A stretch of DNA of 64,000 bases from Pseudomonadales bacterium (GCA_020632265.1 JACKFW010000001.1:140223-204222); one strand, 5' to 3'. Numbered from the stretch's first letter, positions 2,993-59,795 are shown. Program-made: numbers and translations. The notes: generated by a model from the letters alone, not told the origin.

Positions 2993-2995
2993 TTT

Positions 2996-3340
2996 ATGAA
3001 TAATAATTTAATTAATGTAGATTACTTTAAAAAAGTGTTTTATAAATCTCTCTTACCGCTTGAAAAGATTAATGAGTTTTTATCAACATTAAATGCAGAA
3101 AATGTTGATCCGGTTACTGAAGTTTTAATTTCTATTTTCAATGTAAGAATTATTGATACTTTGTTGGAAGATTTTGATGACCTGGAGGATAAGAAACAAT
3201 TTTTACGGATGTGCCAAGATGATTTTCAAAACCCGAAAATACTAGACTTTCTTGTTGAAAAATTTCCAGGTAGTCAAGAAATAATTTCCGAAACTATTGA
3301 AAGAACTATTCTGTCGGCAAATAAATCTCTTTCCGACTAA
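2996..3340 (+). CDS. hypothetical protein
   Basis: ORF of 114 aa tightly coupled to the preceding ORF. Confidence 0.4.
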   Translation: MNNNLINVDYFKKVFYKSLLPLEKINEFLSTLNAENVDPVTEVLISIFNVRIIDTLLEDFDDLEDKKQFLRMCQDDFQNPKILDFLVEKFPGSQEIISETIERTILSANKSLSD

Positions 3341-3491
3341 GACTCATTAATTCAAAAAAATCGAATCTTGTTACTATTCAGTTCCAAATTGGTGGCCGAA
3401 AAGATGACGTCATGATCAATAAAGAACTTTTTACAAAAAACCATCATTATCGTATTCAATTATTGTCTTCATTGTAGTATCTTGTATTAGT

Positions 3492-3881
3492 ATGCTAATT
3501 ATTAATCTACATGTTGGCTCTCGCTATCCTATCAACCGGAAAAAACTTCGGCAAACAGCTCAACTGGTTTTAAAAGAAAACAATATTGAACATGCTCAAA
3601 TCGACATCTCAATCGTAGGAAAAAGAAAAATTAAAAAACTCAATGAATCCGAATTAAAACATGAGGGTGTCACTGACGTACTTTCATTCCCTCAGCACGA
3701 AAAAAATAATTTATATGACTTCCCACTTCCAGAGGGAATTCCACCACACCTAGGTGATGTTGTAATTAGTTTTCCAGAAGCAGTACAGAGTGCAAAACGC
3801 TACGGCAAACTTGTTGATGACCAACTTTGCTTTTATTTACAACATGGCATGATGCATTTACTGGGATATCATCATGATTAA
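3492..3881 (+). CDS. ybeY: rRNA maturation endoribonuclease YbeY
   Basis: C-terminal HGMMHLLGYHHD matches the YbeY H-x3-H-x5-H metal-binding motif. About 130 aa. Confidence 0.8.
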   Translation: MLIINLHVGSRYPINRKKLRQTAQLVLKENNIEHAQIDISIVGKRKIKKLNESELKHEGVTDVLSFPQHEKNNLYDFPLPEGIPPHLGDVVISFPEAVQSAKRYGKLVDDQLCFYLQHGMMHLLGYHHD

Positions 3882-3934
3882 AATTTTTCAAAGTTACAAT
3901 AAATTACCATTTATTAAACAAAGAAACAAAAATA

Positions 3935-5677
3935 ATGTCTTGGAATAGAAAATACCGACCAACTAGAATTGAAGATCTGCACCTTGATTCGGTGCGTACC
4001 CAAATTCATCGCATGATGGATGCAGGGAAAATTCCTCAGGCCCTATTATTTTCTGGACCTAAAGGAACAGGCAAAACATCCTCTTCAAGAATTATTGGCG
4101 CAATAGTTAATGATCCAATAAACTATGATCAAGTGGATCAAGCATATTTTTCAAAAAAAGGTCAAAATGAAGCTGATAATAAAAAACCTTCCAAGACTCT
4201 AAACTCCAAATTACTCGAACCTAGTAATGATACTGATTTTGCAAATAAAATATTTGAGGGTTCATCATTTGTAGTTCAAGAGATGGATGCAGCCAGCAAT
4301 CGTGGCATTGACGACATTAGACAATTAAAAACCATGGCCTTTATGCCTCCTCAAGCTGGAAAAATGTCTGTGTTTATTCTTGATGAGGCTCATATGCTTA
4401 CAACCGAAGCATTTAATGCCTTACTCAAATTACTGGAAGAACCACCTGAGCACGCAATATTTATTTTAGCGACCACCGAAATTCACAAAATTCCTGCAAC
4501 GATTATTTCTAGATGTCAAACCATTGAGTTTCATAAAGCAACAAATCAAGAACTTTTAAACACTCTGAAACAAATACTTATCAATGAAAAAATTAAATTC
4601 GAAGACGAAGCGCTTGAAATAATTATCAATCGAGCTGATGGTAGTTTTAGAGATGCCATTAAATTATTGGAAATGACGGCCCAAACAGGTCAGGTAACAG
4701 TCAAAGAAGTCGGAATTTATTCCGCAGCCTCAATAGACAATGAAGTTACAAATTTAATTGATAACTTGTTAAATAAAGATGAAGTAAAGGTCGTAGAACT
4801 TTTTGAGGAACTTAGAAACAAAAATATCGAACAAAAATATTTTCACAAATCCTTACTTGAAATACTTCACACCAGTTTATTACAGAATTTGGGCGTTAAA
4901 GAGGGAAAACCCTTGGTAAATAAAAAAATTGCTCAATTTCTTTTGACTGAGTTAAGTGATGATTTTCTATCAACTCCGAGTCCAATCCCCCACTTAACTC
5001 TCGAATTAAAAATTCTTGAATTAATTGATAGATCAAAAAATAAAAATTCTAAGACAGTAAAAAAAAATCCTGAAAAATTAAAAGTTTTATCAAAAAAAGA
5101 AACAGGATTCAGTTCTGGTTCAAGTTTTGATTCTGGATTAAATCCTGGTTCAAATTTAAATCCTGGTTCTAATTTAAATAATCACGATAACTCTGTCGGA
5201 ATAAACGACCTAAAGCAATTTGGTTCAGTAGACTCAAATATCAACTTAGTGGATTCCATCTCTAACACAAACTTTACCCCAAAGATTGATAAATTCTTTC
5301 CAAGTGAAACCAAAAGAGCTATTGAAGCATTAGATTCATTGGAATTGAATGGTGATGGCAACAAACTTTGTCAAAAATGGCATAACTTCGTTGACTTAGT
5401 AGCTGAAAATAATTCTACCCTTGCCTCACTTCTAAGATCTGCGAAGCCAATTTCTGGAAAAATTGGAGAAGCAACTATTGGGGTTTTCTATAAATTTCAT
5501 CAAGAACAATTATCCCAACCAAAATTTAACACCCTAATTCAAGAATTCATCAAAAGTGTTGCAGACGGATATTTAAAACTTGATTTTATTTTAACCCAAA
5601 CTCCAATCAAAGCTGAATTGGTTGAAATTGAAAATAATGAATCCTTAGCTCAGGTTGCTTCTCAAGCCTTAATGTAG
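3935..5677 (+). CDS. dnaX: DNA polymerase III subunit gamma/tau
   Basis: Walker A GPKGTGKTS and clamp-loader box ILDEAHML. Followed by ybaB as in the canonical dnaX-ybaB arrangement. Contains an S/G/N-rich tandem-repeat linker. Confidence 0.9.
   Translation: MSWNRKYRPTRIEDLHLDSVRTQIHRMMDAGKIPQALLFSGPKGTGKTSSSRIIGAIVNDPINYDQVDQAYFSKKGQNEADNKKPSKTLNSKLLEPSNDTDFANKIFEGSSFVVQEMDAASNRGIDDIRQLKTMAFMPPQAGKMSVFILDEAHMLTTEAFNALLKLLEEPPEHAIFILATTEIHKIPATIISRCQTIEFHKATNQELLNTLKQILINEKIKFEDEALEIIINRADGSFRDAIKLLEMTAQTGQVTVKEVGIYSAASIDNEVTNLIDNLLNKDEVKVVELFEELRNKNIEQKYFHKSLLEILHTSLLQNLGVKEGKPLVNKKIAQFLLTELSDDFLSTPSPIPHLTLELKILELIDRSKNKNSKTVKKNPEKLKVLSKKETGFSSGSSFDSGLNPGSNLNPGSNLNNHDNSVGINDLKQFGSVDSNINLVDSISNTNFTPKIDKFFPSETKRAIEALDSLELNGDGNKLCQKWHNFVDLVAENNSTLASLLRSAKPISGKIGEATIGVFYKFHQEQLSQPKFNTLIQEFIKSVADGYLKLDFILTQTPIKAELVEIENNESLAQVASQALM
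5059..5067 (+). promoter_or_regulatory. A9 homopolymer slippery site (A AAA AAA in the zero frame) inside dnaX; -1 and +1 frames terminate within 2-5 codons
   Basis: gta aaa aaa aat cct ga. The -1 frame reads aaa tcc tga and the +1 frame reaches taa after 4 codons. It sits at about residue 375 of 580, the domain III/linker boundary. Confidence 0.5.
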
Positions 5678-14909: not shown

Positions 14910-15215
14910 TTAAATCTTTCCCAAAAAATGCATAATTAAAATTGCTAACGTAGAAATTGCAAAAATACCTACGGTTTTTATAAATAGATCAATTGCATCT
15001 TTTTTCTTTGCTTCAATAAACAATAAAAGTGGTTGATAAAAAAACAGGAATGCCATAATGGCCACAGAAAGTGTAAGTACTGATAAAACTAAAATTGGGG
15101 CAAAAAAAGTATCGGGTTTATTTCTCAATGGCTGTGTTGCAAAATTCATAACACCAACTACAAAAATGATGTATACTGAAGCGCTTAAAGCATTAATAAA
15201 AGGATTTTTGGTCAT
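14910..15215 (-). CDS. small integral membrane protein
   Basis: About 101 aa and three hydrophobic segments. Confidence 0.3.
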   Translation of the reverse strand: MTKNPFINALSASVYIIFVVGVMNFATQPLRNKPDTFFAPILVLSVLTLSVAIMAFLFFYQPLLLFIEAKKKDAIDLFIKTVGIFAISTLAILIMHFLGKI

Positions 15216-15503: not shown

Positions 15504-16892
15504 TTAGTAATATTCAGAAAAAGAAATAATTAAATAGGAATTATTTTTTTCAAGAATTTTATTATCAATTAAATCTTCATTTAATCTATTTAAAAGTCCA
15601 TTATTAACAATAAATACTTCGTTTGATTTTTCTTTAATTTTTTCAACCATAGTGTGGTATGGTGCCTCAGATAAATTGAGAGTAATTATATTCTTCTTTG
15701 AATAATAAATAACTGTTGGGAAAAAAGTTTCCACAACATTAATGTTTTCATATTTTCCAGCCTTTATAGAAATATCCTTTTCATCCCCATAATTGTTGTG
15801 ATTTGTATAAATTAAATTAGAAAATTGTTTAAATTGAAAAAATGCCAAAAGAAAAAATAGAATTAAAAATAAATATTCAATCACTATAAATTTTATTGGT
15901 AGCAATTTTAATAAATAGTTTGGAAGTAAGCCAATAAGTAAGGAAACCGCTGGGTATAGAGGAATCAAATGCCATATTTCAGTTTTATCTGATATAAAAA
16001 ACATTGAAAAGCCTACAAGCCATAAAAATAATACTAGAATATTTTTTCTTTGTTTTTTATTAAAGATAAATGTTACGATCGAAATGATTCCAGAAGTCAA
16101 GAAAATTTTGTACCATTTACCTATACCAATTGCTAAATAATTTGAAGCACTGATAATAGAATCAAGGGCAAATGAATTAATCTCCCCCCTTGTACCAATA
16201 GTTATAAAGTGATGATTTAAAAAATTACTATTTAAATGTTGATTGTAAACAAACCAAGGTAATAAAATAATTAAAGCAATTGAAATAGTTTTTAAATAAA
16301 TTTTAAAAGAATATTTTCTATGATTGCTATAAATTAAAAACAATACAGCAGGCAAAATACCAATTCCAACCAAAGCTTTAATTAAGAAAGAGCACGCAAA
16401 ACTTATACTTCCAAAAAATAAATTTTTCTCACCCTTTTTCAAAAGAAAGTATATTGATAATATTTGAAAAAATACTAATGGAGCGTCAAGATTTCCAGAT
16501 CTCGCCCTAAACATAAACCACATACTAGAAAGCAATACTAATGATGCAATAATTCCAGTTATTTTATTGTTCATTTTTTTTCCAACCAAGTAAACTAAAA
16601 TAACACTTCCCATACCAAGTAGAGTTGAGAGAAAGCGCACTGAAAATTCATTACTTCCAAAAAAAATGGCAGGAATTGACATTAGAATAAATCCTAGTGG
16701 TGGATGATCAATAAATATTCCTCCGTTGTATATCAATTTCAACGGATTTTTAGTTATAACTAAATTGCGTGCAACATCACCATACCAGGCCTCATCATAA
16801 CTAAATAATGGAGCATCTGAAATTTTATAAAAAAAGATGGCAATAAGAATAATAGTGACTGAAATATTTAAAGGTTTCAATAAATTTTTCAT
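15504..16892 (-). CDS. GT-C fold membrane glycosyltransferase (GT39/GT83, PMT/ArnT-like)
   Basis: YDEAWYGD motif in the first loop (the PMT/ArnT DE motif). Polytopic. Confidence 0.65.
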   Translation of the reverse strand: MKNLLKPLNISVTIILIAIFFYKISDAPLFSYDEAWYGDVARNLVITKNPLKLIYNGGIFIDHPPLGFILMSIPAIFFGSNEFSVRFLSTLLGMGSVILVYLVGKKMNNKITGIIASLVLLSSMWFMFRARSGNLDAPLVFFQILSIYFLLKKGEKNLFFGSISFACSFLIKALVGIGILPAVLFLIYSNHRKYSFKIYLKTISIALIILLPWFVYNQHLNSNFLNHHFITIGTRGEINSFALDSIISASNYLAIGIGKWYKIFLTSGIISIVTFIFNKKQRKNILVLFLWLVGFSMFFISDKTEIWHLIPLYPAVSLLIGLLPNYLLKLLPIKFIVIEYLFLILFFLLAFFQFKQFSNLIYTNHNNYGDEKDISIKAGKYENINVVETFFPTVIYYSKKNIITLNLSEAPYHTMVEKIKEKSNEVFIVNNGLLNRLNEDLIDNKILEKNNSYLIISFSEYY

Positions 16893-17167: not shown

Positions 17168-17269
17168 TTATACATCTTTCATATCTTTTAATTGTAACAA
17201 ATATTAAATTAAATAGTTTTTATAAAATAGATAATTCAAATACATAGATATATAAAGATATATTTAAAA

Positions 17270-17301
17270 GATCCCGTATTTAGACGCTATTCGAACCTAT
17301 T
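17270..17301. repeat. 32-nt dispersed repeat (family 2), copy 1 of 3: gatcccgtatttagacgctattcgaacctatt
   Basis: Near-identical to the copies at about 21821 and 22789. Shares gatcccg...ttcgaacc with the tRNA-Gln 3' end. Confidence 0.7.
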
Positions 17302-17338
17302 ATATAAAATTGATACTGTATAATACTAAGAAATAAAT

Positions 17339-18028
17339 ATGAAAATTAGCAAATACTTGAATAGAAATAAAGCCATTGAATATGCAAGAATGTCTTGGCC
17401 CGAACTTGGATATAACTCAAGTATGGAGCCTTTCTATAGTTGGGTTATAAATTTAATTAAAAAAATTAATAACCCAAAAGAAATAAATTCAATCGTAGAA
17501 ATTGGCTTTGGAGCAGGAAGAATTTTGTATGAGTTAAGTAAACAATTTCCAAACGTTAAAATTCAAGGGCTTGAATTTTCCAGTGACATGAAAAAAATAT
17601 CCGAACAAATTTTAATTTCTAAAGATATATTTGCAATAACTGAAGATCAAAAAATAATTGGAAAAAAACTTGAAAATATTAATTTAAAAGATGGAGTGGA
17701 TATACAAAACTTGAATGAAGTAAAATCTAACCAATTTGACCTAACAGTATGTATTAATGTTCTTGATAGAATAGTAAATCCTAAAAAAGCAACTAAAGAG
17801 TTACTAAGAATAACAAAAATAGAAGGATATTGTATCATTGTTAATGCTTTCGATTATGAAGAAAAAACTCCATTAAAAATGCAAATTGACCCAATATCAT
17901 TTGAGAACTTATTAAATGATCTTAATTTCAAAATATTAACTCAAAAGAAATCAAAACTAGTTAAATCACTGCCAAAAAAACCAATCAGAATATTCAATGA
18001 ATACGGTTACGTTTTACAAAAAAAATAA
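17339..18028 (+). CDS. class I SAM-dependent methyltransferase
   Basis: Motif I VEIGFGAGRIL. About 229 aa. Confidence 0.7.
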   Translation: MKISKYLNRNKAIEYARMSWPELGYNSSMEPFYSWVINLIKKINNPKEINSIVEIGFGAGRILYELSKQFPNVKIQGLEFSSDMKKISEQILISKDIFAITEDQKIIGKKLENINLKDGVDIQNLNEVKSNQFDLTVCINVLDRIVNPKKATKELLRITKIEGYCIIVNAFDYEEKTPLKMQIDPISFENLLNDLNFKILTQKKSKLVKSLPKKPIRIFNEYGYVLQKK

Positions 18029-18031
18029 GAG

Positions 18032-19888
18032 TTAAATGCTAATATATTCATAAACTAACATTCTTTGTAAATATGCTTCAATTTTTTTATATATTTGTTG
18101 GTCAGTCTTATAACCAGTTATTTCAAAATACTGAGCCAACAATACTATTGCAATATATGCCTCTACAGAAATATTAATTTTTTTTGAGTATTTTTTCTGC
18201 AATTTATCAATAATATTTTTCCTTTTTTTAGCAACATTTTCCTTAATATTAGTTATCAGTGGAGATGCTTTCCACTGAGTTGGATATAATAAAGTATTAT
18301 CAGATCCACTAAAACTAATTTCATCTAGAATAATTTTATTTTTAATTGCCTCAAGCCTATTATTTTTCATCAAAGTTAACACACTTGGTGAGTTTGGTGT
18401 AGCAAACACTCCAAAGGTTGCATAAATAATAGCACCCCTTGATAACCAGTATAAAGACTTTTCTGTCGTTAACCTAAGTGATTGATCTGTTTCAAATTGA
18501 TTAAATAACATCAAATTAATTTCTGGAGTAATACCAACTTCCAACATATAGCTTAATGATTCATTAATATTAGCATCAGAAAAATTATTTTTACTCAATC
18601 CAGATCTTACTGTTGAATCAAAACTTTCTACACCACAAGCAATTCGAACGAAATTTGCTTTAAATAATGCGTCTATCAACTCTTGATTGAACGAAGTAAT
18701 TCTCATTTTTCCATGCTTTGGTTGAATCAACCCATTCTTAACCATTTGACCACATAACCAAATCATTTTCTCTGGATCATTTGCTAAATCATTATTATTA
18801 AAAGAAATTACATCAGCATGTTTACCAATATCTAATAAATAGGCTAATTCTTGTTCTCTTGAGTTAAAAACTAAGTTTTTAGGAACAGCACAATATGAAC
18901 ATTTTTGACTACAACTATTATCTGACAAAACTTGAATTGAACCTGTTGCAACTCCATCAACAGAGACCGAATTGGCACTTGAATACATTTGTGGATGAAT
19001 TAAATCCAAATGGCCTTGTGGTATAAATTGATCTTTTGCCGTTTTTCTTGATTGTATGATTCTCTCTAAAATACTTTCCCAATTCTCATTAGTATATAAA
19101 TCTGGAAAATGTTTATGGGCAAATTGCCTTATACTATTTCTAGAAACATCTGTGTTATTGTGTAGGTATTTTGCCAATACTTCTAGCTCTTTAACAGCAT
19201 ATCCTGGAATGATTAAATCAACTGGTAGCACTTCATCTAAGCCTTTTCTCCCCGACATTGTTGGCAAATACTGCAAAGAATCACTGCCAATACCACCAAC
19301 AATTTTTCTTGAGTTTGGAAAAATTTTGTGTATTAACTCAAACAAACTAATATCGTTTCTTAAGTTTACTGGCAACATACTAAAACCAAAAACTACCTGA
19401 GATCCTGGTATTATAAATTCTGATATTTTTGTTAAAAGTTCAGTGGGAGAAGAAAACATATTTGGATCAATACAAAGCGTTGTTGCTTCTTGAGACTTTG
19501 CTAATAACCATTCAGATATTACCCACATACCTTCTGAAGGGACATTAGATGTCCATTCACTGTCTCCTAATAAGCCATAACTTGATATAAAAATAAACTG
19601 CACTGGATTTAAAATTAAATCATCTTTATTTAAAGAAGATGCAGTAAATTTATCAAGGCTTTTAATCTTAATATTAAAAAGCCTAACATTTTTTAATTCA
19701 GAAAATAATTGTAATAAATTAATCTTTTGCTTATCACTGATATGAACTTCATTATTTAATTGACGAACTGTAAGTACCCCATCAGTAATTGAAACTGTAA
19801 CTAAATGTACCTCACTGAAAGGTTTTTGTATATTTTCATACAGGAGATGATCTTCATATCGGCGATGATTTTCAACTGCTCTTTTCAT
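18032..19888 (-). CDS. B12-binding-domain-containing (class B-like) radical SAM protein
   Basis: CSQKCSYC = CxxxCxxC at about residue 335. N-terminal Rossmann-like region of about 300 aa. 618 aa. Confidence 0.65.
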   Translation of the reverse strand: MKRAVENHRRYEDHLLYENIQKPFSEVHLVTVSITDGVLTVRQLNNEVHISDKQKINLLQLFSELKNVRLFNIKIKSLDKFTASSLNKDDLILNPVQFIFISSYGLLGDSEWTSNVPSEGMWVISEWLLAKSQEATTLCIDPNMFSSPTELLTKISEFIIPGSQVVFGFSMLPVNLRNDISLFELIHKIFPNSRKIVGGIGSDSLQYLPTMSGRKGLDEVLPVDLIIPGYAVKELEVLAKYLHNNTDVSRNSIRQFAHKHFPDLYTNENWESILERIIQSRKTAKDQFIPQGHLDLIHPQMYSSANSVSVDGVATGSIQVLSDNSCSQKCSYCAVPKNLVFNSREQELAYLLDIGKHADVISFNNNDLANDPEKMIWLCGQMVKNGLIQPKHGKMRITSFNQELIDALFKANFVRIACGVESFDSTVRSGLSKNNFSDANINESLSYMLEVGITPEINLMLFNQFETDQSLRLTTEKSLYWLSRGAIIYATFGVFATPNSPSVLTLMKNNRLEAIKNKIILDEISFSGSDNTLLYPTQWKASPLITNIKENVAKKRKNIIDKLQKKYSKKINISVEAYIAIVLLAQYFEITGYKTDQQIYKKIEAYLQRMLVYEYISI

Positions 19889-19955
19889 ATATTTGGTTTG
19901 TTCATGTGTGTATTATATCTGTATTATATAGTATAATTATATTTTTTCAAAAAAT

Positions 19956-20666
19956 ATGTCAAAAGAATCAAGAACAATAATTAGCATCAAAGCCAAAATT
20001 GAACCTCCCTTTTTTCGAAAAGAAGACATGAGAGGCAAGAAAGGGATTACAATTGCTTTACAAAAAAGCGGTGAGCTTTCTAATATTGCTCTCATTACCT
20101 TATCACAGATCTTAAATAGAAGTATTCCAAAAGAACCTAATGATAGAAAATTTTTTGTAAAAAATGGTGACGATAATTTAGTTTTTGCTAGAAATTCAGA
20201 TATTGTTCATCTTGTTAACAGTGGCGCAGCAGATATCGCTGTTATTGGTATAGATCGACTAATTGAAGAAGGATTTGGACATTTAGTTGGAATTCAGACA
20301 CAAAATATAGATACAAATATACTAATAATAAAATGTTTAGAGACATTACAGCCATGGAGAATAGTTCTTGCAACAAAACAAAAACTACTAGACCTAAGAC
20401 AAATTAGTCAAATTGCAACAAGTTATCCAATAATAGCCCAGGTATTTTTTAACACACTTTCTCAAGATATAAATCTTATTTCAGTTAATGGAAGTACGGA
20501 AGCGATGATTAATCTCAAGTTTAACAATGCACCAATCGATGCTATCATTGATTTAACTGTATCAGGGAAAACCCTTAAAGCGAACGGGTTGATTCCTTGG
20601 AAAAATGATATACTCCATATTTACCCAGTCGTTATTGCAAATAAACAATTCTTGCAAAGTTTATAA
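19956..20666 (+). CDS. hisG: ATP phosphoribosyltransferase (HisG, short form)-like protein
   Basis: Blocks ITIALQKSGEL, DIAVIGIDRLIEEGF, IATSYPIIAQVFF and STEAMINL..APIDAIIDLTVSGKTLKANGL align to conserved HisG blocks. Confidence 0.55.
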   Translation: MSKESRTIISIKAKIEPPFFRKEDMRGKKGITIALQKSGELSNIALITLSQILNRSIPKEPNDRKFFVKNGDDNLVFARNSDIVHLVNSGAADIAVIGIDRLIEEGFGHLVGIQTQNIDTNILIIKCLETLQPWRIVLATKQKLLDLRQISQIATSYPIIAQVFFNTLSQDINLISVNGSTEAMINLKFNNAPIDAIIDLTVSGKTLKANGLIPWKNDILHIYPVVIANKQFLQSL

Positions 20667-20705
20667 AACATGATTTTTTTAGATAGTAAGTAGATCAAAA
20701 CCAGT

Positions 20706-21249
20706 TTAAGTTTCAAGTTTAATTAAATTCAAGTCGATCGTATTTGATGATTTGTATTGTCTGACAATTTCACCAATAATGAATAAAACATATTTTTCTC
20801 TCAAAGATGGAGGTATCAGGGGTGATAAATTTAGCACAACTTTCCTTCCATAACTAATTCTTCCATCAGCTTGAGTACTGTGATATATAGGATCTTCTCG
20901 ACTAACCCTTCCAGAAATTGTTGTGTATCCAGTGGAAAAAGTGGCGGGTGTTGACAAATTATTGTCAACAACACTCAATATTGCATGTTCAAGAACGTGT
21001 GCAAATTCATCTGGGTATTCTGGTTCCTCCAAATCATCATACCAAAGTTCGTAGCCACGATTAGATGCTCTTAATCTTAATTGATCTTCAAGTTTTTTTT
21101 ACAGAATTAAATAAAAGCCTAGCAGGAATTTCCAACTCTAACCTATATAATAAATCCTTATCTAAAACTACAGAAGGAAACTTTTTTTCAAATGGAGATC
21201 GCTCAACAGTATAAACTTTTTTTATGTTTTTTGAATTTACTTCAAACAT
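20706..21249 (-). pseudogene. conserved hypothetical gene split by a frameshift in an A8 run (upstream part MFEVNSKNIKK...NSVKKT*, downstream part is track ORF 20706..21032)
   Basis: Removing one A from gtaaaaaaaac fuses the two reading frames into one protein of about 181 aa. The downstream ORF starts at a TTG with no independent RBS. Confidence 0.45.
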
Positions 21250-21284
21250 ATAAATATCGTAACATAAAACAATTCATTAATAAT

Positions 21285-21569
21285 CTACTCAATATTAAAT
21301 AGGTTTTTAAGAATTGCTAGTATTGTTGAGTCTTCAATATGTTGACCCGCAGCTATATTCTCTATTCCTCTTCTTTGCAAACCAACTCTTTGTTTTTTAG
21401 ATTTGGGTTGAACACTAACCTGTATGGGTCTTCCATTCACAACAGCATCAGTTTTATTACCATAATCTTCTTGAGTAGTAGCTAATCTAGCAGATAAACC
21501 TAATCTTAATGCAATATCTACTACTCTTTCCTCTGCCGCCCGTCCATTTTCTTGCGATTTTCTTGTCAT
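21285..21569 (-). CDS. hypothetical protein
   Basis: 94 aa, basic. No motif. Confidence 0.35.
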   Translation of the reverse strand: MTRKSQENGRAAEERVVDIALRLGLSARLATTQEDYGNKTDAVVNGRPIQVSVQPKSKKQRVGLQRRGIENIAAGQHIEDSTILAILKNLFNIE

Positions 21570-21671
21570 AAGAAATTATTTTATCAAAAATGAACTATAT
21601 TGTAAATTACTTGAGCAATAGCGAATAAAAATAATATTATTTATATTCGTATATAGTTATAATTGTTTGAA

Positions 21672-21757
21672 GATCCCAGACTAGGGTTCACGACTCGCTT
21701 CACTCACATGCACTAGGAAGGTGTTTCGCATTCGCTCTACACTTTCCGTCGCGAACC
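21672..21757 (-). repeat. GC-rich structured repeat (family 1, copy A) beginning with an 18-19-nt copy of the tRNA-Gln 3' end
   Basis: gatcccagactagggttc. Conserved blocks gcactaggaagg, cattcgct and ttccgtcgcgaacc are shared with copy B. The ends GGTTCGCGAC and GTCGTGAACC can pair. Confidence 0.65.
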
Positions 21758-21785
21758 AAATAATTTCAATCTTACAATTCAAGAT

Positions 21786-21821
21786 CAAATAATTAACCAG
21801 CTTTCGCTGGTTAATTATTTG
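21786..21821. terminator. perfect 16-bp hairpin (caaataattaaccagc-tttc-gctggttaattatttg)
   Basis: Palindrome read directly. No clear U-tract. Lies between family-1 copy A and family-2 copy 2. Confidence 0.4.
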
Positions 21822-21852
21822 ATCCCGTACGTGGACAGTATTCGAACCTATT
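21821..21852. repeat. 32-nt dispersed repeat (family 2), copy 2 of 3: gatcccgtacgtggacagtattcgaacctatt
   Basis: Sequence identity to the copies at about 17270 and 22789. Confidence 0.7.
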
Positions 21853-21879
21853 TTGTACACACATGCTACAATCTAACTG

Positions 21880-22239
21880 ATGAAAAAAATATATGATGAT
21901 CTAAGTAATTCAGAAGAAGTTAATTCTTTTTTAAAAACTATTCCTTACCAAAACAGACGAGAGGCTATATTTAAAGCTAAAGAGAATCTAGAAGAGATAA
22001 CATTGAGGATATGGTTAGAAGAACTTGCTAATATATCAGAAAAAATTAAGAATAAAAACAACCTACAACCAAATCTACAGGGATGGCAAAATTACTTAAA
22101 ACTAGGCTTTTCAAAAGATAAATTTAGAAGAAAATACGGATTTGATGATTGGTCAACTAAATATAAAATGGAAATGTTTATTCAATATGAAGAAGATGAC
22201 TACAGAAAAAAAATGGTGATACTAAATTTTTACGGTTAA
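21880..22239 (+). CDS. hypothetical protein
   Basis: 119 aa. No motif. Confidence 0.4.
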   Translation: MKKIYDDLSNSEEVNSFLKTIPYQNRREAIFKAKENLEEITLRIWLEELANISEKIKNKNNLQPNLQGWQNYLKLGFSKDKFRRKYGFDDWSTKYKMEMFIQYEEDDYRKKMVILNFYG

Positions 22240-22367
22240 AAAATAAAAGTTTTTTTGAATATTACTTTGGAGGTGCTGGCATAAATCCAGAAATTTGGTG
22301 GGCAAAGAAGAAAAATATAAATCCAAACAGCCTTCTTGTTCATGCACTCACTCCAAAATCCTTATTA

Positions 22368-22697
22368 ATGGTAATAAGAACAGGAACAGTTGGAAGAGGA
22401 AGTTTTGATCAAGTCGCTATGAGCCAAGATAGAATAATATATAATTCTGGGTATGCAATTATTTTTCAAGCAAGTGACTTAGTGAAAGCTGGCTACTCAT
22501 TATTACCAATACAGGAAGTCAGTCGTGATTCACATATTCTGCAAGAATGGAGATCGCCTGTTGCAATAGATATTAACATAGCTCGTTTAATTGTACCAAT
22601 TTCTGATATACCTGACCACAAAAATGCTACTAAATCTCAAATTGCTAGAAGTTATTTTGGTGAAAAGTTCCTCAAAAACTTAAAAAGAATATATTAA
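22368..22697 (+). CDS. hypothetical protein
   Basis: 109 aa. No motif. Confidence 0.35.
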   Translation: MVIRTGTVGRGSFDQVAMSQDRIIYNSGYAIIFQASDLVKAGYSLLPIQEVSRDSHILQEWRSPVAIDINIARLIVPISDIPDHKNATKSQIARSYFGEKFLKNLKRIY

Positions 22698-22788
22698 TAA
22701 TTTTTTCTACCAAAAAAGACATTGTCCAACCTAGTTTTGTTACTTAAATTTAAAAATTAGATTGATATATAATGATATATTTGAAAAA

Positions 22789-22820
22789 GATCCCGTACGT
22801 GGACGCTATTCGAACCTATT
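22789..22820. repeat. 32-nt dispersed repeat (family 2), copy 3 of 3: gatcccgtacgtggacgctattcgaacctatt
   Basis: Sequence identity to the other two copies. Confidence 0.7.
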
Positions 22821-22831
22821 TAATAGTAAAA

Positions 22832-23221
22832 TCAACTGGAGAGGGATTTTATTACAGCGAGAACTGAGTCGTATTGTTCACTTGTAATATTTTTGCTGAA
22901 TCTGCCATTAAACCCACCAAACTTCAAACCGCCACCATTTTCATAATCAACAGAGTGAGTATCAATAAACATATAGGCTTTTGAACCATCAAGATATGTT
23001 ATGTCTATCCTTCTGTGTCCGACACTGTGATTATCCCTGATAAACTCTATTCGAAAATGATTTTTTTCTTCATCAGTATGTTCTACAGTTGCCTCTTGAT
23101 ATAATGGATGATTAGTATTAGTCCATATTAATTTTCCCCGAGCTATTATGCAATCCATGGCACTAATAAATTGTCCTGTATGTGGGTGAAATTGTTCCGT
23201 TCGATCGATTTCAGTTTTCAT
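22832..23221 (-). CDS. hypothetical protein (start moved to the internal ATG preceded by AAGGAG)
   Basis: The track ORF extends to 23290 into the family-1 repeat. The internal Met (MKTEIDRTEQ...) has a good RBS (aaggagaagagaatATG). Confidence 0.45.
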   Translation of the reverse strand: MKTEIDRTEQFHPHTGQFISAMDCIIARGKLIWTNTNHPLYQEATVEHTDEEKNHFRIEFIRDNHSVGHRRIDITYLDGSKAYMFIDTHSVDYENGGGLKFGGFNGRFSKNITSEQYDSVLAVIKSLSS

Positions 23222-23270
23222 ATTCTCTTCTCCTTCATTATATTTAAATGATATTATATCATTTAAATTT

Positions 23271-23371
23271 GATCCCGGACTAGGGTTCACGACTCGCCAC
23301 TATTTACACTTTCTGGATGTTGGCTCGCTTGCACTAGGAAGGCTCACTACATTCGCTTTCCGTCGCGAACC
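23271..23371 (-). repeat. GC-rich structured repeat (family 1, copy B) beginning with a 19-nt copy of the tRNA-Gln 3' end
   Basis: gatcccggactagggttc. Shares conserved blocks and the terminal pairing with copy A. Lies about 70 nt downstream of tRNA-Gln on the same strand. Confidence 0.65.
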
Positions 23372-23403
23372 TGTAGCCCAAACCCTCCAACCCGAATAAT
23401 ATT

Positions 23404-23432
23404 AAAAAAGATAGCAAGTGCTATCTTTTTTT
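23404..23432 (-). terminator. intrinsic terminator hairpin after tRNA-Gln (aaaaaagatagca-ag-tgctatcttttttt)
   Basis: 7-bp GC-poor stem flanked by A and T runs on both sides, so bidirectional. Confidence 0.55.
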
Positions 23433-23438
23433 ATTATG

Positions 23439-23509
23439 ATCCCGGACTAGGGTTCGAACCTAGGATAACAGTTCCAGAAACTGTTGTGATGCCACTTCAC
23501 TATCCGGGA
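23439..23509 (-). tRNA. tRNA-Gln (anticodon CUG)
   Basis: Manual fold of TCCCGGA-TA-GTGA-AGTGGCA-TCAC-A-ACAGT-TTCTGGA-ACTGT-TATC-CTAGG-TTCGAAC-CCTAG-TCCGGGA-T. Has the bacterial tRNA-Gln U1:A72 pair. CCA is not encoded. Confidence 0.85.
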
Positions 23510-39509: not shown

Positions 39510-41204
39510 TTGCTAGCGGTTGCTAAAGAGGTTACAATTTCAATACAGATGCAAGATTTATTATCAATTAAAGTCGCCTTAGAACCATTATATATTCTTC
39601 ACAAATTAAGACAAAATAATTTTGAAGCATATATTGTTGGTGGAGCAGTCAGAGATATTCTCATTGAATCCATTGAAAATAAAATGGCTGGCAAGCTCAC
39701 TAACAACACTTATCACATCAAAGCTTCTGACTACGATTTTACAACATCAGCAAAACCTGAACAAATTCAGAAAACATTTCCAGAAAATTTTTATGAAAAC
39801 AAATTTGGCACAGTCAGTGTAACAAGAACTCACCTTCGCGAACAAATGAATTTACAAAATATTAAATTTACAGAATCCAATTCTAAAAAATTATTTTCTT
39901 CAACATTCAATAAAAAAACAATAAATTTATCTTCAGCCACAAAAATTCATGAGTCACTAAAAAATAACATCAAAAATAATCAAATAGAAGATAATAAACT
40001 GAATATAAATGATAAAAAAAATATTGATGATAATGAAGTTTATGAAATTACAACATTTAGATCGGATGGCGAGTATTTAGATTATAGGCGTCCAGAAGAT
40101 GTGTCCTGGGGCGAATCATTACAAAGTGATCTAAACAGACGAGATTTTAGTATTAATGCAATGGCAATTAAAATTAGCGATCAATTTTTAAATTCACTAA
40201 ATTTTAAAGAATCTGAAGAAATTGTTACCATTAACCCCGATAATTTTGAAGTTATCGATCAACATTTTGGAATGAAAGATTTACAAAATGAAATTATCAA
40301 AACAGTAGGAAATCCTGATGAAAGATTTAATCAAGACGCACTAAGACTTTTGCGTGCTATTAGATTCTCAATTCAATTAAACATGCAAATCGATGATCAA
40401 ACATTTGAAGCTATTATTAAAAATTCTCATCTAATTCAACATGTGAGTTGGGAAAGAATTAGAGATGAATTATTAAAAATGTTATCAAGTAATTACCCCA
40501 AAGAAGCAATTAAAATTTTAGACGAAACCGGATTATTAAAAATAATTATTCCCGAATTAATTGAAGGTAAGGGAGTCATGCAAGGTGGTCATCACATCAG
40601 TGATGTTTGGAATCACAATTTAGATTCATTAGATAATTGTCCTTCCATCGATCCAATCGTGAGACTAGCAACTTTACTACACGACATTGGTAAACCCAGA
40701 ACACTAAAGATTATTGATGGAAAACCTACATTTTATAATCATGAAATTATTGGTTCTAGAATAGCTAAAGATATCGCAAAAAGATTAAAACTATCAAAAA
40801 TTGAAATTGAAAGAATATTCATTTTAGTTCGTTATCATATGTTTCATTACCAACCAGAAAATACTGATTCATCAATAAGAAGATTTATGAAAAAAGTTGG
40901 CCTGGAAAATATCAATGATATTTTGGATCTAAGAGAGGCCGATAGAATTGGTAGTGGAGCAACTAAATCCAGCTGGAGATTAGAAGAAATGAAACAACGT
41001 ATGGTGGAACAACTTCACCAACCATTTTCAATTAGTGATTTAGCCATTAATGGAAATGATTTAATGAAAGAACTAAATATTCAACCTGGTCGAATTGTTG
41101 GAGAAATATTAAATACATTATTTGAAGAGGTAATTGAGAATCCAGAACTTAATTCCAAAAATGAGCTTTTAAAAATTGCGAAAAGAATTGTAACAAAATT
41201 ATAA
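39510..41204 (+). CDS. cca: CCA-adding enzyme / poly(A) polymerase family nucleotidyltransferase with HD domain
   Basis: GGAVRD head motif, RRDF, HD domain (LLHDIGKP). Carries a roughly 90-aa low-complexity N/K-rich insertion. Confidence 0.8.
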   Translation: MLAVAKEVTISIQMQDLLSIKVALEPLYILHKLRQNNFEAYIVGGAVRDILIESIENKMAGKLTNNTYHIKASDYDFTTSAKPEQIQKTFPENFYENKFGTVSVTRTHLREQMNLQNIKFTESNSKKLFSSTFNKKTINLSSATKIHESLKNNIKNNQIEDNKLNINDKKNIDDNEVYEITTFRSDGEYLDYRRPEDVSWGESLQSDLNRRDFSINAMAIKISDQFLNSLNFKESEEIVTINPDNFEVIDQHFGMKDLQNEIIKTVGNPDERFNQDALRLLRAIRFSIQLNMQIDDQTFEAIIKNSHLIQHVSWERIRDELLKMLSSNYPKEAIKILDETGLLKIIIPELIEGKGVMQGGHHISDVWNHNLDSLDNCPSIDPIVRLATLLHDIGKPRTLKIIDGKPTFYNHEIIGSRIAKDIAKRLKLSKIEIERIFILVRYHMFHYQPENTDSSIRRFMKKVGLENINDILDLREADRIGSGATKSSWRLEEMKQRMVEQLHQPFSISDLAINGNDLMKELNIQPGRIVGEILNTLFEEVIENPELNSKNELLKIAKRIVTKL

Positions 41205-53317: not shown

Positions 53318-53389
53318 GGCCCCATCGTCTAGCGGTTAGGACACCAGGTTCTCATCCTGGCAGCCAGAGTTCGATTCTCTGTGGGGTCA
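53318..53389 (+). tRNA. tRNA-Glu (anticodon CUC)
   Basis: Manual fold: GGCCCCA acceptor; anticodon arm CCAGG-TTCTCAT-CCTGG; T-arm CAGAG-TTCGATT-CTCTG; 3' acceptor TGGGGTC; discriminator A. Confidence 0.85.
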
Positions 53390-53574
53390 CAATATAAAAA
53401 AAGATCCATTTATGGATTCTTTTTTTATATTGTGGTCGCATAGTTTGAAAAGCACTCCGCCGAGCAAAGCGAAGCAGAGTTCTGACGGAGAGTGCAAAGC
53501 ACCCTCCTAATGCAAGTGAACCATCCTACAGAAATCATAAATTGTGGCGAATCGTAGATTCTCTGTGGGGTCAC
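53385..53574 (+). repeat. 190-bp repeat R190, copy 1; begins inside the tRNA-Glu 3' end and ends with a second copy of the tRNA 3' 18-19-mer (gattctctgtggggtcac)
   Basis: About 95% identical to 55448..55637. Contains a terminator-like hairpin (aaaaaaagatccat-tt-atggatcttttttt) and a GC-rich segment. Confidence 0.8.
53396..53427 (+). terminator. intrinsic terminator after tRNA-Glu (A-run, gatccat-tt-atggat, T-run)
   Basis: Palindrome read directly. Also present, with a perfect stem, in R190 copy 2 at about 55459..55490. Confidence 0.55.
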
Positions 53575-53596
53575 ATTTTTGTTAAGAACACACTAA

Positions 53597-54097
53597 TTAT
53601 TCTATATTATAAATTTCATTCATCACAAAATGAAAAGCGTCACCAAATTTTTTAGGATTTTCCTTTAATTCTTTCAGTAACTGATCCCTTGAAAATCTTT
53701 CATAAGAATCAGATTCATGATTCAACACAGGTTCCTCATCGGAATATATTTCATAAACAATAAAATAATGGTTTTCTTTTCTTCCAATAACTTCTCTGTT
53801 GTAGATCTTCTTACCAACAAACTTAAAATCAAATTCTGTAATACCCAATTCTTCTTCAGTCTCTCTTCTTAATGCTTCTTCTTCAGTTTCACCAGACCGA
53901 ATATGTCCTCCAACAGGAGATACATACTGTCCAGCATCTTGTCTATCATTTGCTTGTTTTACTAAAATCCAGTTACCGTGTGAATCAATTAGTTCTGAAA
54001 TAATAACTCTATGTAGAATGCCTTTTTCATGACACTCTACTTTAGGACAATTACCTGTTACTTCATCTTTTGCATTTACTATGTCAACTATTTCCAT
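53597..54097 (-). CDS. Nudix hydrolase
   Basis: Nudix box GGHIRSGETEEEALRRETEEELGI. Confidence 0.8.
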   Translation of the reverse strand: MEIVDIVNAKDEVTGNCPKVECHEKGILHRVIISELIDSHGNWILVKQANDRQDAGQYVSPVGGHIRSGETEEEALRRETEEELGITEFDFKFVGKKIYNREVIGRKENHYFIVYEIYSDEEPVLNHESDSYERFSRDQLLKELKENPKKFGDAFHFVMNEIYNIE

Positions 54098-54123
54098 ATA
54101 TTATGTTCTAAATTTGCTTTCAA

Positions 54124-55335
54124 CTACTCAACTTTTACAAACTTCTTTTTACCCTCAAGAGTAACCTTCATAACTTTCATATAAATCAAAATAAAAATAA
54201 ATACTCCTACTGCATACAAAGCAGAAATTAGCAGTGCTGTTCTTAATTCAAAAGTATCAAATACATATCCAGCAACAATAGCTAATACAGATGCCACTAA
54301 AGCCTCATATACCTTAATACTTGAAAGAGTTGTTGCCCTAATCTTTGATGGTATATGCTTTTGTCCAAAACTATTTATTATTGCTTCTTTAAATGGCTCA
54401 GATACATAAAAAACCATTGCAGATAATAAACCTACAAAACCAAAAAACTTGCTCATTCCAAACAACCCTATTGCAAAAATAAACCAAGAAATAAACATTA
54501 GTTGGAACTCACTTAAATACTGTTTTAACTTTGCAAACTGAGAAACTACTATTGCTTGTAATCCATAAACAATTGCAACAAAAACTCCTAACCATTTAAC
54601 ATCAAATAGTTCTAAACCTAAAATGTATGGCTTATCAACTGAATGGATAAAGTAGTGGTGAAACCCATATAGCAATGAGACAAATAACGTAATAAAAAAC
54701 AACTCTTTTGAAATTAAAATATGCTTTAACCCTGCAAATACATTTAGCTCTTCTTCAACAATACTTTCTGAAGCTTTTTTTTCAGATTTCATAAACCAAA
54801 CTATTACAGCAGAAATGCAAAAGAATACTGCTAAAAGATAATACGGATAATTATGATTTATCGAAAACAAATATGCACCAATAATACTTCCTATAGCAGC
54901 TGCTATATAATTAACACTTCCACTGTAAGAAATAATTTCATCATATATTGAAACTTTTTTTTGAGAATCTAAATAATCATAAATATATGCTTCAAGAGAA
55001 CCAGAAATAAAAGAAATACCTAACATCCAAACTGCAGCAAAGAATGCAAACTGGATAGTAGTTTCTAAACCAGTCCAAATTAACGACGTTGCTGTCATTG
55101 TAATTAAACCAACAATAACACTAGCTTTTCTTCCAAATTTATCACCAAAAAAACCTGTTGGAATTTCAAACAAAAAACCAGCTACAGAAAACACTCCAAA
55201 AACTATGGCAATGTCTGCATAACTTAAGCCTTTTGCTAAGAAAAATAAGGCAATAATTACGTTGATTGGATATAATCCATAAATGAATTTATATAGTATG
55301 TATAAAAATAAGGTTTTGTCTTTGAGATATTTCAT
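54124..55335 (-). CDS. MFS transporter
   Basis: 12 TM segments and a GDKFGRK-type MFS motif between TM2 and TM3. Confidence 0.75.
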   Translation of the reverse strand: MKYLKDKTLFLYILYKFIYGLYPINVIIALFFLAKGLSYADIAIVFGVFSVAGFLFEIPTGFFGDKFGRKASVIVGLITMTATSLIWTGLETTIQFAFFAAVWMLGISFISGSLEAYIYDYLDSQKKVSIYDEIISYSGSVNYIAAAIGSIIGAYLFSINHNYPYYLLAVFFCISAVIVWFMKSEKKASESIVEEELNVFAGLKHILISKELFFITLFVSLLYGFHHYFIHSVDKPYILGLELFDVKWLGVFVAIVYGLQAIVVSQFAKLKQYLSEFQLMFISWFIFAIGLFGMSKFFGFVGLLSAMVFYVSEPFKEAIINSFGQKHIPSKIRATTLSSIKVYEALVASVLAIVAGYVFDTFELRTALLISALYAVGVFIFILIYMKVMKVTLEGKKKFVKVE

Positions 55336-55386
55336 CTATGTGATTTTATCATTAAATGTAACTACTTATATTTAGCAGTTGGTACA

Positions 55387-55445
55387 CAATATATAAGACG
55401 TAGCCTCTCGAGGTTTTCAAGAAATGGTTCAAACTGAGTTACCTT
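55387..55445 (+). repeat. repeat X, copy 1 (tatataagacgta..cctct..tggttcaaactgagtta.ctt)
   Basis: About 75% identity to 60361..60420. Immediately precedes R190 copy 2. Confidence 0.5.
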
Positions 55446-55447
55446 AA

Positions 55448-55637
55448 GGTCACAATATAAAAAAAGATCCATTTATGGATCCTTTTTTTATATTTTGGTC
55501 GCATAAATTGAAAAGCACTCCGCCGAGCAAAGCGAAGCAGAGTTCTGACGAAGAGTGCAAAGCACCCTCCTAATGCAAGTGAGCCATCCTACAGAAATCA
55601 TAAATTGTGGCGAATCGTAGATTCTCTGTGGGGTCAC
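55448..55637 (+). repeat. 190-bp repeat R190, copy 2, ending with a third copy of the tRNA-Glu 3' 19-mer
   Basis: Direct repeat of 53385..53574 with about 9 mismatches. Confidence 0.8.
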
Positions 55638-55783
55638 AAGTATCGTTTTGTTCAGTGCGACCCGTAAGGGTGCGCAGAAAATCCCGATAAAACCTACTAA
55701 TTTTTCTTCAACTTCTTCAAAATGTCGTTTTAGATCCTGTAATTATTTACAAAGTTTTTTATAATGATATACTTCGATGTACT

Positions 55784-57049: not shown

Positions 57050-57051
57050 AT

Positions 57052-59574: not shown

Positions 59575-59795
59575 TTTTTATTAACCAACAATATCCTTAT
59601 TATACTCTACCGCTATTATTAGTAAGAGTTTATATTCTTGTTTATAAATAATTTCCTAGTTGATTAGGTAGCTATTTAAACTAAAACTATCTTAGACCTA
59701 TAATTACTTGAGGTGAAAGTCGTGCGGTGAGAATCCCATTGCGGTCACAAATATCGTAAAGTTCAGCGCTTCTTGAAAGAACTCGTGAGGTAGGC

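Follow-up and report, generated by a model that had tools for sequence, protein, structure and literature searches.

The DNA analyzed here (the window) is a 64,000-nucleotide (nt) stretch of an assembly labeled 'Pseudomonadales bacterium' (GCA_020632265.1, JACKFW010000001.1:140223-204222), a label that looks wrong, as the gene content, the ~31% GC and the closest relatives point to the Patescibacteria. Its only tRNA genes, tRNA-Gln(CUG) and tRNA-Glu(CUC), are each followed by two copies of a structured repeat, or module, that ends in a copy of the 3' end of the tRNA in front of it. The modules are here called B and A behind tRNA-Gln, and E1 and E2 behind tRNA-Glu, the first of each pair being the one next to the tRNA. 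An initial annotation of this DNA had picked out B and A; it missed E1 and E2, as well as homologous modules behind tRNA-Gln(UUG) in other Patescibacteria. We found that the repeats and their shared architecture are real, far beyond chance expectation and more general than first noted.

All modules, 130-190 bases in size, follow one order: an intrinsic terminator, an 11-nt mimic of the 5' strand of the acceptor and T stems, a GC-rich body made of P1, P2 and P3, and a tail equal to positions 57-75 of the local tRNA (Table 1). A linker of 14-33 nt occupies the place of the D and anticodon arms. Within the body, stem P1 bears the hairpins P2 and P3, with the conserved junction strands UARUGCAAGYGAR and CGARUCGU. 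The mimic directly follows the terminator and is complementary to tail positions 62-72 in all copies; an ungapped register puts the B and A mimics in this homologous position as well. In two modules from related genomes, those of the metagenome-assembled genome (MAG) PAT3 (locus L122) and of L138, it reads UGUCUGA-UUGG and UUCCCGA-UUGG. Identity to the tRNA starts at G57 in every copy (B, A, E1, E2, L122, L125, L136 and L138), and the body always comes after the T-loop GTTC. Just 5' of it stands the cognate T-stem 5' half followed by UUC, exact in E1 and E2 (CAGAGUUC) and approximate in B and PAT3, so that the body looks as if it had been inserted between T-arm positions 56 and 57. Every one of the tails (8/8) is preceded by a body, which argues against a body randomly inserted into old attachment (att) site remnants.

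At the tRNA-Gln locus, the 18-mer GAACCCTAGTCYGGGATC occurs exactly three times in the window, all on the minus strand, in the tRNA (23438-23455), in B (23271-23288) and in A (21672-21689); the chance expectation is 0.02, and none of 100 shuffles reached three. The initial annotation had both elements carrying the last 19 nt of the tRNA, which is correct for B, where identity runs from the T-loop G57 to 1-2 nt beyond the discriminator. In A it covers 18 nt with one C-to-T difference, a C68-to-U change whose partner is G5 of the A mimic. Both elements also extend further 5' than the limits first given (23271-23371 and 21672-21757), B to ~23270-23397 and A to ~21671-21784. The other features proposed for this locus were borne out, namely the minus-strand tRNA-Gln(CUG), the terminator behind it, the internal block GGTTCGCGACGGAAAG (exact at 23356-23371 in B and 21742-21757 in A, and confined to these two), the pairing of GGUUCGCGAC with GUCGUGAACC as P1 (10 base pairs including one G-U, present in minimum-energy folds), and the presence between and around the elements of orphan open reading frames (ORFs) without a Pfam match. 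The terminator, judged by its A and T runs, could work in both directions. Compared with B, A has a longer P2 and no P3. The hairpin in front of A escaped the terminator scan, having a weak T-run; C2 (one of the C sites described below), this hairpin and A mirror the layout of tRNA, terminator and B. In the P3 loop of B, UCCAGAA (23311-23317, minus strand), which contains the Gln codon CAG, exactly matches the reverse complement of UUCUGGA, the anticodon loop of tRNA-Gln. Any particular 7-mer would turn up in an element so small with a chance of ~0.6%, and the match, not seen in A, E or PAT3-type modules, may be a coincidence.

The body of E1 and E2 is homologous to that of B in its P2 hairpin, in UAAUGCAAGUGAA versus UAGUGCAAGCGAG, in a P3 with a similar loop and in CGAAUCGU versus CGAGUCGU. 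One of the few differences between E1 and E2 turns a G-C pair of P2 into A-C in E2, and their near-identity indicates a recent copying event. Several further pairings are possible in these two copies. The P3 loop sequence CCUACAGA (53526-53533 and 55589-55596, plus strand) is complementary to positions 62-69 of its own tail (8 pairs, one G-U) and might form an alternative pairing or pseudoknot, although 21 of 300 shuffles did equally well in a duplex-energy test. Within 53450-53495, the upstream GCACUCCG is able to pair with the P2 5' strand, CGGAGAGUGC, giving two mutually exclusive hairpins. AGCAAAGCGAAG lies upstream of the T-arm half in E1 and E2, but in the P2 loop of PAT3.

Table 1. Coordinates of features at the tRNA-Gln and tRNA-Glu loci, counted from the first nucleotide of the window
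Feature	Position	Strand	Evidence or remark
tRNA-Gln(CUG), parent gene of B and A	23439..23509 (start 23438/9)	minus	ARAGORN; Rfam RF00005, 59.5 bits
Intrinsic terminator hairpin with A-run and T-run, first part of module B	23404..23431	minus	hairpin scan and sequence
Module B, putative tRNA-like element	23270..23397	minus	sequence, repeats, folds, alignment
B mimic of acceptor/T 5' strand, AUUCGGG-UUGG	23387-23397	minus	linker follows
B P1 5' strand	23362-23371	minus	
B P2 hairpin	23337-23361	minus	
B junction UAGUGCAAGCGAG	23324-23336	minus	
B P3 hairpin	23297-23323	minus	
B CGA-GUCGU	23289-23296	minus	
B tail, identical to tRNA-Gln positions 57-75	23270-23288	minus	
Orphan ORF, 129 amino acids from ATG, cargo between B tail and C1	22832..23221	minus	no Pfam family
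C1, TAGGTTCGAATAGCGTCCACGTA then CGGGATC	22789..22818	minus	repeat search
Two adjacent orphan ORFs, cargo between C1 and C2	21880-22239 and 22368-22697	plus	no Pfam family
C2	21821..21850	minus	repeat search
Hairpin AATTAACCAGC-GAAA-GCTGGTTAATT, first part of module A	21791..21816	minus	read from sequence
Module A, older diverged copy of B-type module	21671..21784	minus	sequence, repeats, folds, alignment
A mimic UCUUGAA-UUGU	21774-21784	minus	
A P1 5' strand	21748-21757	minus	
C3, 3 mismatches to pattern	17270..17299	minus	repeat search
tRNA-Glu(CUC), parent gene of E1 and E2	53318..53390	plus	ARAGORN, Rfam
Terminator hairpin with T-run, first part of E1	53403..53426	plus	read from sequence
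Module E1	53434..53575	plus	sequence, folds, alignment
E1 mimic GGUCGCA-UAG (GGUCGCA-UAGU as the full 11-nt stretch)	53434-53443	plus	
E1 exact tRNA-Glu T-stem 5' half and UUC	53475-53482	plus	
E1 P2	53487-53507	plus	
E1 junction UAAUGCAAGUGAA	53508-53520	plus	
E1 P3	53521-53547	plus	
E1 CGA-AUCGUA	53548-53556	plus	
E1 tail GATTCTCTGTGGGGTCACA, identical to tRNA-Glu positions 57-75	53557-53575	plus	
NUDIX hydrolase (53597-54097) and MFS transporter (54124-55335), cargo after E1	53597..55335	minus	Pfam
C-type site, putative scar, GGTTCAAACTGAGTTACCTTAA then GGTCACA (last 7 nt of tRNA-Glu)	55426..55454	plus	sequence comparison
Terminator hairpin, first part of E2	55466..55481	plus	hairpin scan
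Module E2, near-identical to E1 (about five differences)	55497..55638	plus	sequence comparison

Scans of genome collections and metagenomes with a 20-mer and an 18-mer at the body/tail junction returned one Patescibacteria MAG (PAT3, locus L122), one relative (L125) and three chance matches, indicating that the exact block is rare. Orthologous loci in a graded series of genomes were reached through homologues of the neighboring acyltransferase. Behind tRNA-Gln(UUG), modules are present in L122, L125, L136 and, in a shorter and more diverged form, L138; they are absent from L134, L137, L139, L140, L142, L143 and L144. Wherever a module occurs, its tail (GAACCCTAGTCGGGCATCA or GAGTCCTAGTCGGGCATC) equals positions 57-75 of the local tRNA. 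In L122, tRNA-Gln(UUG), a terminator and a homologous body precede a tail GAACCCTAGTCGGGCATCA that is the end of that very tRNA, and the L138 tail (GAGTCC...) tracks the different T-loop of its own tRNA. The empty-site comparison proposed in the initial annotation was informative: with the same flanks, L134 lacks exactly the 152 nt of L122 that run from the tRNA end to the tail end, and the module is thus a clean indel bounded by the 19-nt repeat. L122 and L125 share ~85% identity as far as the final base of the tail, then diverge for ~400 nt and realign, and almost every genome has a different gene following its tRNA or module. The initial annotation had also considered that the elements might occur at many loci unrelated to tRNA genes, which is not what we observed, as the body motifs were found only in front of tRNA tails, and nowhere else in the window or in the other loci searched. 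No tail copies lie behind tRNA-Leu or tRNA-Val in the loci compared. Viral contigs scanned with two exact blocks and two degenerate two-block patterns gave chance matches only, in GC-rich coding DNA, and the modules had no blastn match among phage and plasmid records.

To compare the folds of these copies, we used alignment A4, made by hand with N padding and with pairs counted by a program; MAFFT alone misaligns P2 and the variable loops. A4 contains 32 pairs, with a paired fraction of 90% of cells that drops to 34-48% once the partners are slid; 12 pairs changed on both sides, a number reached in 0 of 500 shuffles (covariation score 0.33 versus 0.18 in shuffles). P2 carries the clearest signal, with compensatory changes in five of its eight pairs (GGAA/UUCC, GGAG/CUCC, GGCA/UGCC and others) and 98% of cells paired, and RNAalifold recovers it unaided. 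The acceptor/T helix has 90% of its cells paired, and both sides changed in 6 of its 11 pairs. Given a gapped alignment, RNAalifold folds P1, P2 and P3 into a three-way junction on either strand, at -15.2 kcal/mol for the tRNA strand and -16.6 kcal/mol for the other.

The mimic also prefers its own tail. In spacer-tail duplex energies (kcal/mol, with the other tails in brackets, first the Gln(CUG) B-tail or Gln(UUG) column and then the Glu column), the values were -15.1 (-7.2, -4.4) for PAT3, -13.4 (-5.8, -7.6) for E1/E2, -9.5 (-6.9, -4.9) for B, -11.5 (-7.9, -4.0) for L136 and -13.9 (-12.3, -6.7) for L138, so that the spacer prefers the cognate tail type in 6 of 7 copies. Pairing differs between the strands: the acceptor-like helix has 51 of 54 cells paired on the tRNA strand (19 of them G-U) and 33 of 54 on the other, P1 has 48 of 58 versus 42 of 58, and P2, including an A-C position, has 45 of 52 versus 51 of 52. 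Relative to the 5' strand of the tRNA, the mimics show about ten C-to-U or A-to-G changes in which pairing is kept through G-U, and no transition breaks a pair (counted by eye). As G-U pairs are stabilizing in RNA and mismatches in duplex DNA, the reliance on them, taken with the strand counts, tips the balance towards an RNA. We infer that the modules are transcribed, in the direction of the tRNA, and that the product would be processed in the manner of a tRNA.

The match of each tail to the local tRNA, the pairing of mimic and tail with its many G-U pairs, and the compensatory changes in P2 together favor a tRNA-like RNA over a mere att arm. We put at roughly 45% the probability that A, B, E1 and E2 are members of a new family of tRNA-like RNA modules, derived from tRNA, lacking an anticodon and carrying an insert in the T-loop, which sit within the island traffic at tRNA-Gln and tRNA-Glu and are reshuffled by it. 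One of the two suggestions of the initial annotation, a small RNA family mimicking the tRNA 3' end, is the better description, given the homologous modules behind tRNA-Glu and tRNA-Gln(UUG) with their own tails and compensatory helices. The mimicry is larger than it envisaged, with a 5' strand that completes an acceptor/T-type helix.

Several points weigh against this interpretation. The handmade, N-padded alignments lean towards the proposed structure, and they hold only about five independent sequence types. RNAalifold did not recover the acceptor-like helix. P1 is strong in the Gln-type copies only and weak in E1 and E2, its pairs being invariant or partly kept, while copy A has no preference for its own tail. 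The A-C mismatch conserved in P2 on the tRNA strand is a G-U pair on the other. Single-sequence folding gives modest z values (-0.8 to -2.4), so that the case for structure must rest on the comparison between copies. Some of the complementarity between mimic and tail may be a legacy of the parent tRNA and not a product of selection, and the strand and ends of the RNA are themselves deduced; promoter scans stayed at chance level, with none callable in AT-rich DNA of ~30% GC.

A different kind of repeat, the 30-nt C site TAGGTTCGAATAGCGTCCACGTACGGGATC on the tRNA strand, occurs three times behind tRNA-Gln (0 expected by chance), with one C-like site behind tRNA-Glu. C1 consists of the T-arm 5' half, 12-13 unrelated nt and the last 7 nt of tRNA-Gln. 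A similar design is found in L145 (L127 extended; GCA_900089805, contig FLOH01000256, 2486-16148), where a tRNA-Glu(CUC) without a module is abutted by an intact 12.6-kb island encoding a large serine recombinase, Prim-Pol, SpoVG, an excisionase-like HTH_17 protein and two DNA methyltransferases. The recombinase gene (2520-4007) converges on the tRNA-Glu 3' end and overlaps it. At the far end of the island (15167-15197), GAGTTCGAGGTATTACAACGT then GGGGTCACA form the T-arm 5' half, 13 nt and the terminal 9 nt of the tRNA; ~950 nt further on, a second junction site (16118-16148) bounds an older remnant. The C sites in the window share the design of the far junction (T-arm 5' half, 12-13 nt, last 7-9 nt of the tRNA), a comparison with one intact example. 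From this resemblance in sequence, we read the C sites as putative junction scars of serine-recombinase-type islands. If so, 17270-23438 and 53391-55638 would be arrays of degraded insertions, with C3 probably the outer limit of the tRNA-Gln array; such arrays have been described for other tRNA-seeded islands (bioRxiv 10.1101/2020.12.28.424599). The AT-rich sequence after C sites is alike across two genomes and two tRNAs (AAATATATCATTATATATCAATC after C1, AAATATACATTGTTATATCAATC after the L145 site; stretches 22758-22788 and 17239-17269 in the window, 15198-15225 in L145) and may be the tRNA-proximal end of one island family. The two plus-strand ORFs between C1 and C2 look like one gene split by a frameshift or stop, and a single broken gene at 21880-22697 would fit decaying cargo.

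The other suggestion of the initial annotation, att-type duplications, survives insofar as the locus is a hot spot with partial-tRNA junction scars, the clearest of which are the C sites that it did not list. Its pairing of A and B as attL and attR of one element does not fit: B lies ~40 nt past the tRNA terminator, the ~150-nt unit is a stand-alone indel elsewhere, and no recombinase, transposase (including TnpA), TnpB or reverse transcriptase is present among the window ORFs scanned against Pfam. Nor is there a recombinase beside the modules in L122 or L134-L138; within a bounded segment, one was seen for the C-type junction of L145 only.

Much of the DNA-level evidence would also be expected if the modules were DNA scars only, left as attP arms by tyrosine-integrase islands that crossed over in the T-loop. 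The terminator would then be the P' arm, the GC-rich body the P arm and the 19-nt tail the displaced original end of the tRNA, with conservation reflecting binding sites for integrase and accessory proteins in place of RNA. The match of the tail to the host tRNA would be automatic, and identity in every copy from a fixed T-loop position to the 3' end is what T-loop-type att sites typically show. An indel that falls cleanly at the repeats and a hypervariable flank after the tail fit equally well, and islands seeded at tRNAs, with repeats of part of the tRNA and degraded remnants, have been well documented (bioRxiv 10.1101/2020.12.28.424599). We nevertheless consider this unlikely, though it is the main rival explanation. 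There is no integrase near any of the eight copies, no intact island with such an arm was found, and the tRNA-to-tail segment always measures ~110-165 nt and is never a ragged remnant. In DNA, moreover, the mimic/tail helix would have mismatches wherever it needs G-U (19 of 54 cells), the shape of P2 is kept by compensatory changes, and a 5' mimic that tracks the identity of the tail is not predicted if the tail derives from the host.

The sporadic presence of modules among close relatives recalls a miniature non-autonomous mobile element that homes to the 3' part of its cognate tRNA and is moved in trans, the fold (as RNA or single-stranded DNA) being its recognition or guide part. Such an element could explain why both loci have one module at the tRNA and an older one displaced beyond scars, and why the body always follows GTTC; the near-identity of E1 and E2 would mark a recent copy, and the P3 loop of B, closer to E than to the PAT3 tRNA-Gln module, would suggest a target switch within one genome. 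We regard it as improbable, however, since no candidate enzyme, no terminal inverted repeats and no copies away from tRNA tails were found, the viral contigs, phage records and plasmid records scanned held none, and recombination between the 19-nt repeats explains duplication and loss more simply. Very improbable indeed is an antisense small RNA, for which transcription would enter the tail from the flank and stop at the bidirectional terminator, and whose 5' end would be complementary to the final 19 nt of the tRNA. On that strand P2 is a perfect helix with G-U (51/52 cells), the consensus energy is slightly better (-16.6 versus -15.2 kcal/mol), A and T runs flank the terminator, and there is a weak FsrA-like match (E = 5). 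Yet the Rfam match to FsrA is at chance level, the acceptor-like helix (33/54) and P1 (42/58) pair worse than on the tRNA strand, and its promoter would need to sit in flanks that differ in every genome.

Returning to the tRNA-like RNA modules, we can propose an order of events that would account for both loci. The terminator would end the tRNA transcript, and in the module RNA the mimic would pair with the tail to give an acceptor/T-type minihelix ending in N73 and then CA. Since such a minihelix is the part of a tRNA recognized by RNase P, the 3' trimming enzymes and the CCA-adding enzyme, the module RNA would be expected to mature like a tRNA, with the body as its putative working part. Both tRNA genes have CA after the discriminator base and no encoded CCA, and a CCA-adding enzyme with an HD domain is encoded in the window (39510-41204), so CCA addition is available. 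At the DNA level, the tail would duplicate the part of the tRNA that serves island recombinases as their target. Recombination between 19-nt repeats could delete or duplicate a module, as the presence/absence pattern and the tandem copies suggest (clean loss in L134, tandem E1/E2). Serine-recombinase islands inserting at the tRNA end or at the tail would leave C-type scars and push older modules outward, which would produce the order tRNA, B, cargo, C1, cargo, C2, A, further genes and C3 at tRNA-Gln, and tRNA, E1, cargo, C and E2 at tRNA-Glu. At both loci, one module does lie next to the tRNA and another beyond the putative island scars, E1 and E2 being near-identical and B and A diverged. These orders fit equally well with repeat recombination plus island insertion, with active homing of modules, or with modules carried as tRNA-proximal island ends.

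A bolder version, which we consider distinctly improbable, is a self-propagating tRNA mimic whose RNA, bearing the acceptor/T helix of one specific tRNA together with a conserved three-way-junction domain, would direct its own DNA insertion next to the cognate tRNA gene, or else act as a decoy, shielding tRNA-Gln and tRNA-Glu or their genes from attackers of the acceptor end such as toxins or island recombinases. If true, ultra-small bacteria would possess a tRNA-specific RNA element of a new class.

The remainder of the window carries ordinary bacterial genes, among them GluRS (608-2044), a clamp-loader subunit, BipA, SecDF, RRF, an AsnRS/AspRS-type synthetase, RecJ and many glycosyltransferases. 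No further tRNA lies to the left of the window in the extended sequence. Just beyond E2, the stretch 56000-60000 has a GC content of 0.41 and 0.37, against ~0.30 elsewhere, and carries two radical SAM genes (55784-57049 and 57052-58440), a NUDIX gene and a histidine phosphatase; it, too, may have been acquired. A near-identical strain is represented in a second sample by a 20.4-kb contig (L147, Logan SRR28385526_77931) whose end would fall near window position 20200, not far from the tRNA-Gln array, where either an assembly break at the repeats or a strain difference may be the reason.

When part of a tRNA is found repeated behind its gene, the repeat is commonly taken for an inert scar of integration. 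In the present case such a repeat is the 3' strand of a conserved, compensating fold that copies the acceptor and T stems of the neighboring tRNA. If the RNA is real, it would add a tRNA-like family to the few known, in poorly studied reduced genomes, and would link an RNA gene directly to island growth at tRNA genes. Annotators would also gain a marker of island boundaries in Patescibacteria, where integrases are often missing. Even if it is an att arm only, it is an unusually structured one. Our literature search turned up tRNA-seeded islands and no description of such a module.

Several known identities were considered and rejected. The tRNA model (RF00005), searched with E up to 10, picks out nothing but the two true tRNAs, and ARAGORN is blank in the modules. 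A tmRNA is contradicted by the lack of any ARAGORN or Rfam tmRNA match and of an intact T-arm, and by U-G or C-G at position 3-70; a likeness to GGAUUCGACGGG and GCGAAUGUA of the tmRNA 3' region was not borne out by either program. The only matches to Rfam 15 over the modules at E up to 10 were at chance level (FsrA with 17 bits against a threshold of 80, and miRNA models on the terminator). A split tRNA or tRNA intron is excluded by the complete upstream tRNA, and a retroviral-type primer-binding site on the opposite strand by a complement without the TGG required for a CCA end. Motifs of hammerhead and other small ribozymes and of the T-box are absent, and the differences between E1 and E2 are not adenine-specific, as the template/variable repeat pair of a diversity-generating retroelement would demand. 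Nor are the modules integron attC sites, whose R''/R' consensus is RYYYAAC / GTTRRRY: P1 is GGTTCGC...GTGAACC, with C at the fourth core position, the fold is three-way, and the window ORFs scanned include no integrase.

Folded single-strand recombination sites and the guide RNAs of mobile elements invite comparison. Integron attC, CTX phage attP and the ends of IS200/IS605 likewise keep structure while sequence varies, have conserved mismatches and stand at cassette boundaries with short gene cassettes between them; the modules differ in forming a three-way junction instead of a simple hairpin, in heavy G-U use that points to RNA, and in having no Pfam recombinase or transposase among the window ORFs scanned. 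Miniature elements of the IS200/IS605 type have subterminal hairpins and insert 3' of a fixed 4-5 nt target; here GTTC always precedes the body, and the window contains neither TnpA nor TnpB. As in the omega RNA of TnpB/IscB and the CRISPR RNAs by which CRISPR-associated transposons home to tRNA genes, a structured scaffold is followed by ~19 nt equal to the adjoining target. Unlike these, the modules have no nuclease or transposase gene, their scaffold is much shorter and the 'guide' is paired intramolecularly.

The closest parallels are tRNA-seeded islands and tRNA-like noncoding RNAs. With the former (for example tycheposon arrays in Prochlorococcus, and tRNA/tmRNA islands), our loci share tRNA-3' direct repeats at junctions, successive insertions displacing older material, degraded cargo, recombinase-less remnants, a hypervariable flank and, in L145, an intact relative with recombinase and primase-polymerase at the same tRNA. 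In contrast to such islands, the 19-nt repeats of the modules are always preceded by a conserved GC-rich compensating body and a helix-completing 5' strand, and the smallest unit is ~150 nt and gene-free. Similar to tRNA-like noncoding RNAs (the tmRNA domain, YrlA/Y RNA, mascRNA and viral 3' structures), which are matured by tRNA enzymes, the modules combine an acceptor/T-type helix and an unpaired N73 tail with an attached non-tRNA domain. However, their extra domain sits in the T-loop and does not replace the anticodon arm, they lack an intact T-loop, a D-loop analogue and a G3-U70 pair, and their last 19 nt at the 3' end are identical to the adjacent tRNA, with no Rfam or ARAGORN match. The modules thus resemble att repeats at the level of DNA, and tRNA-like noncoding RNAs in the way their sequences evolve.

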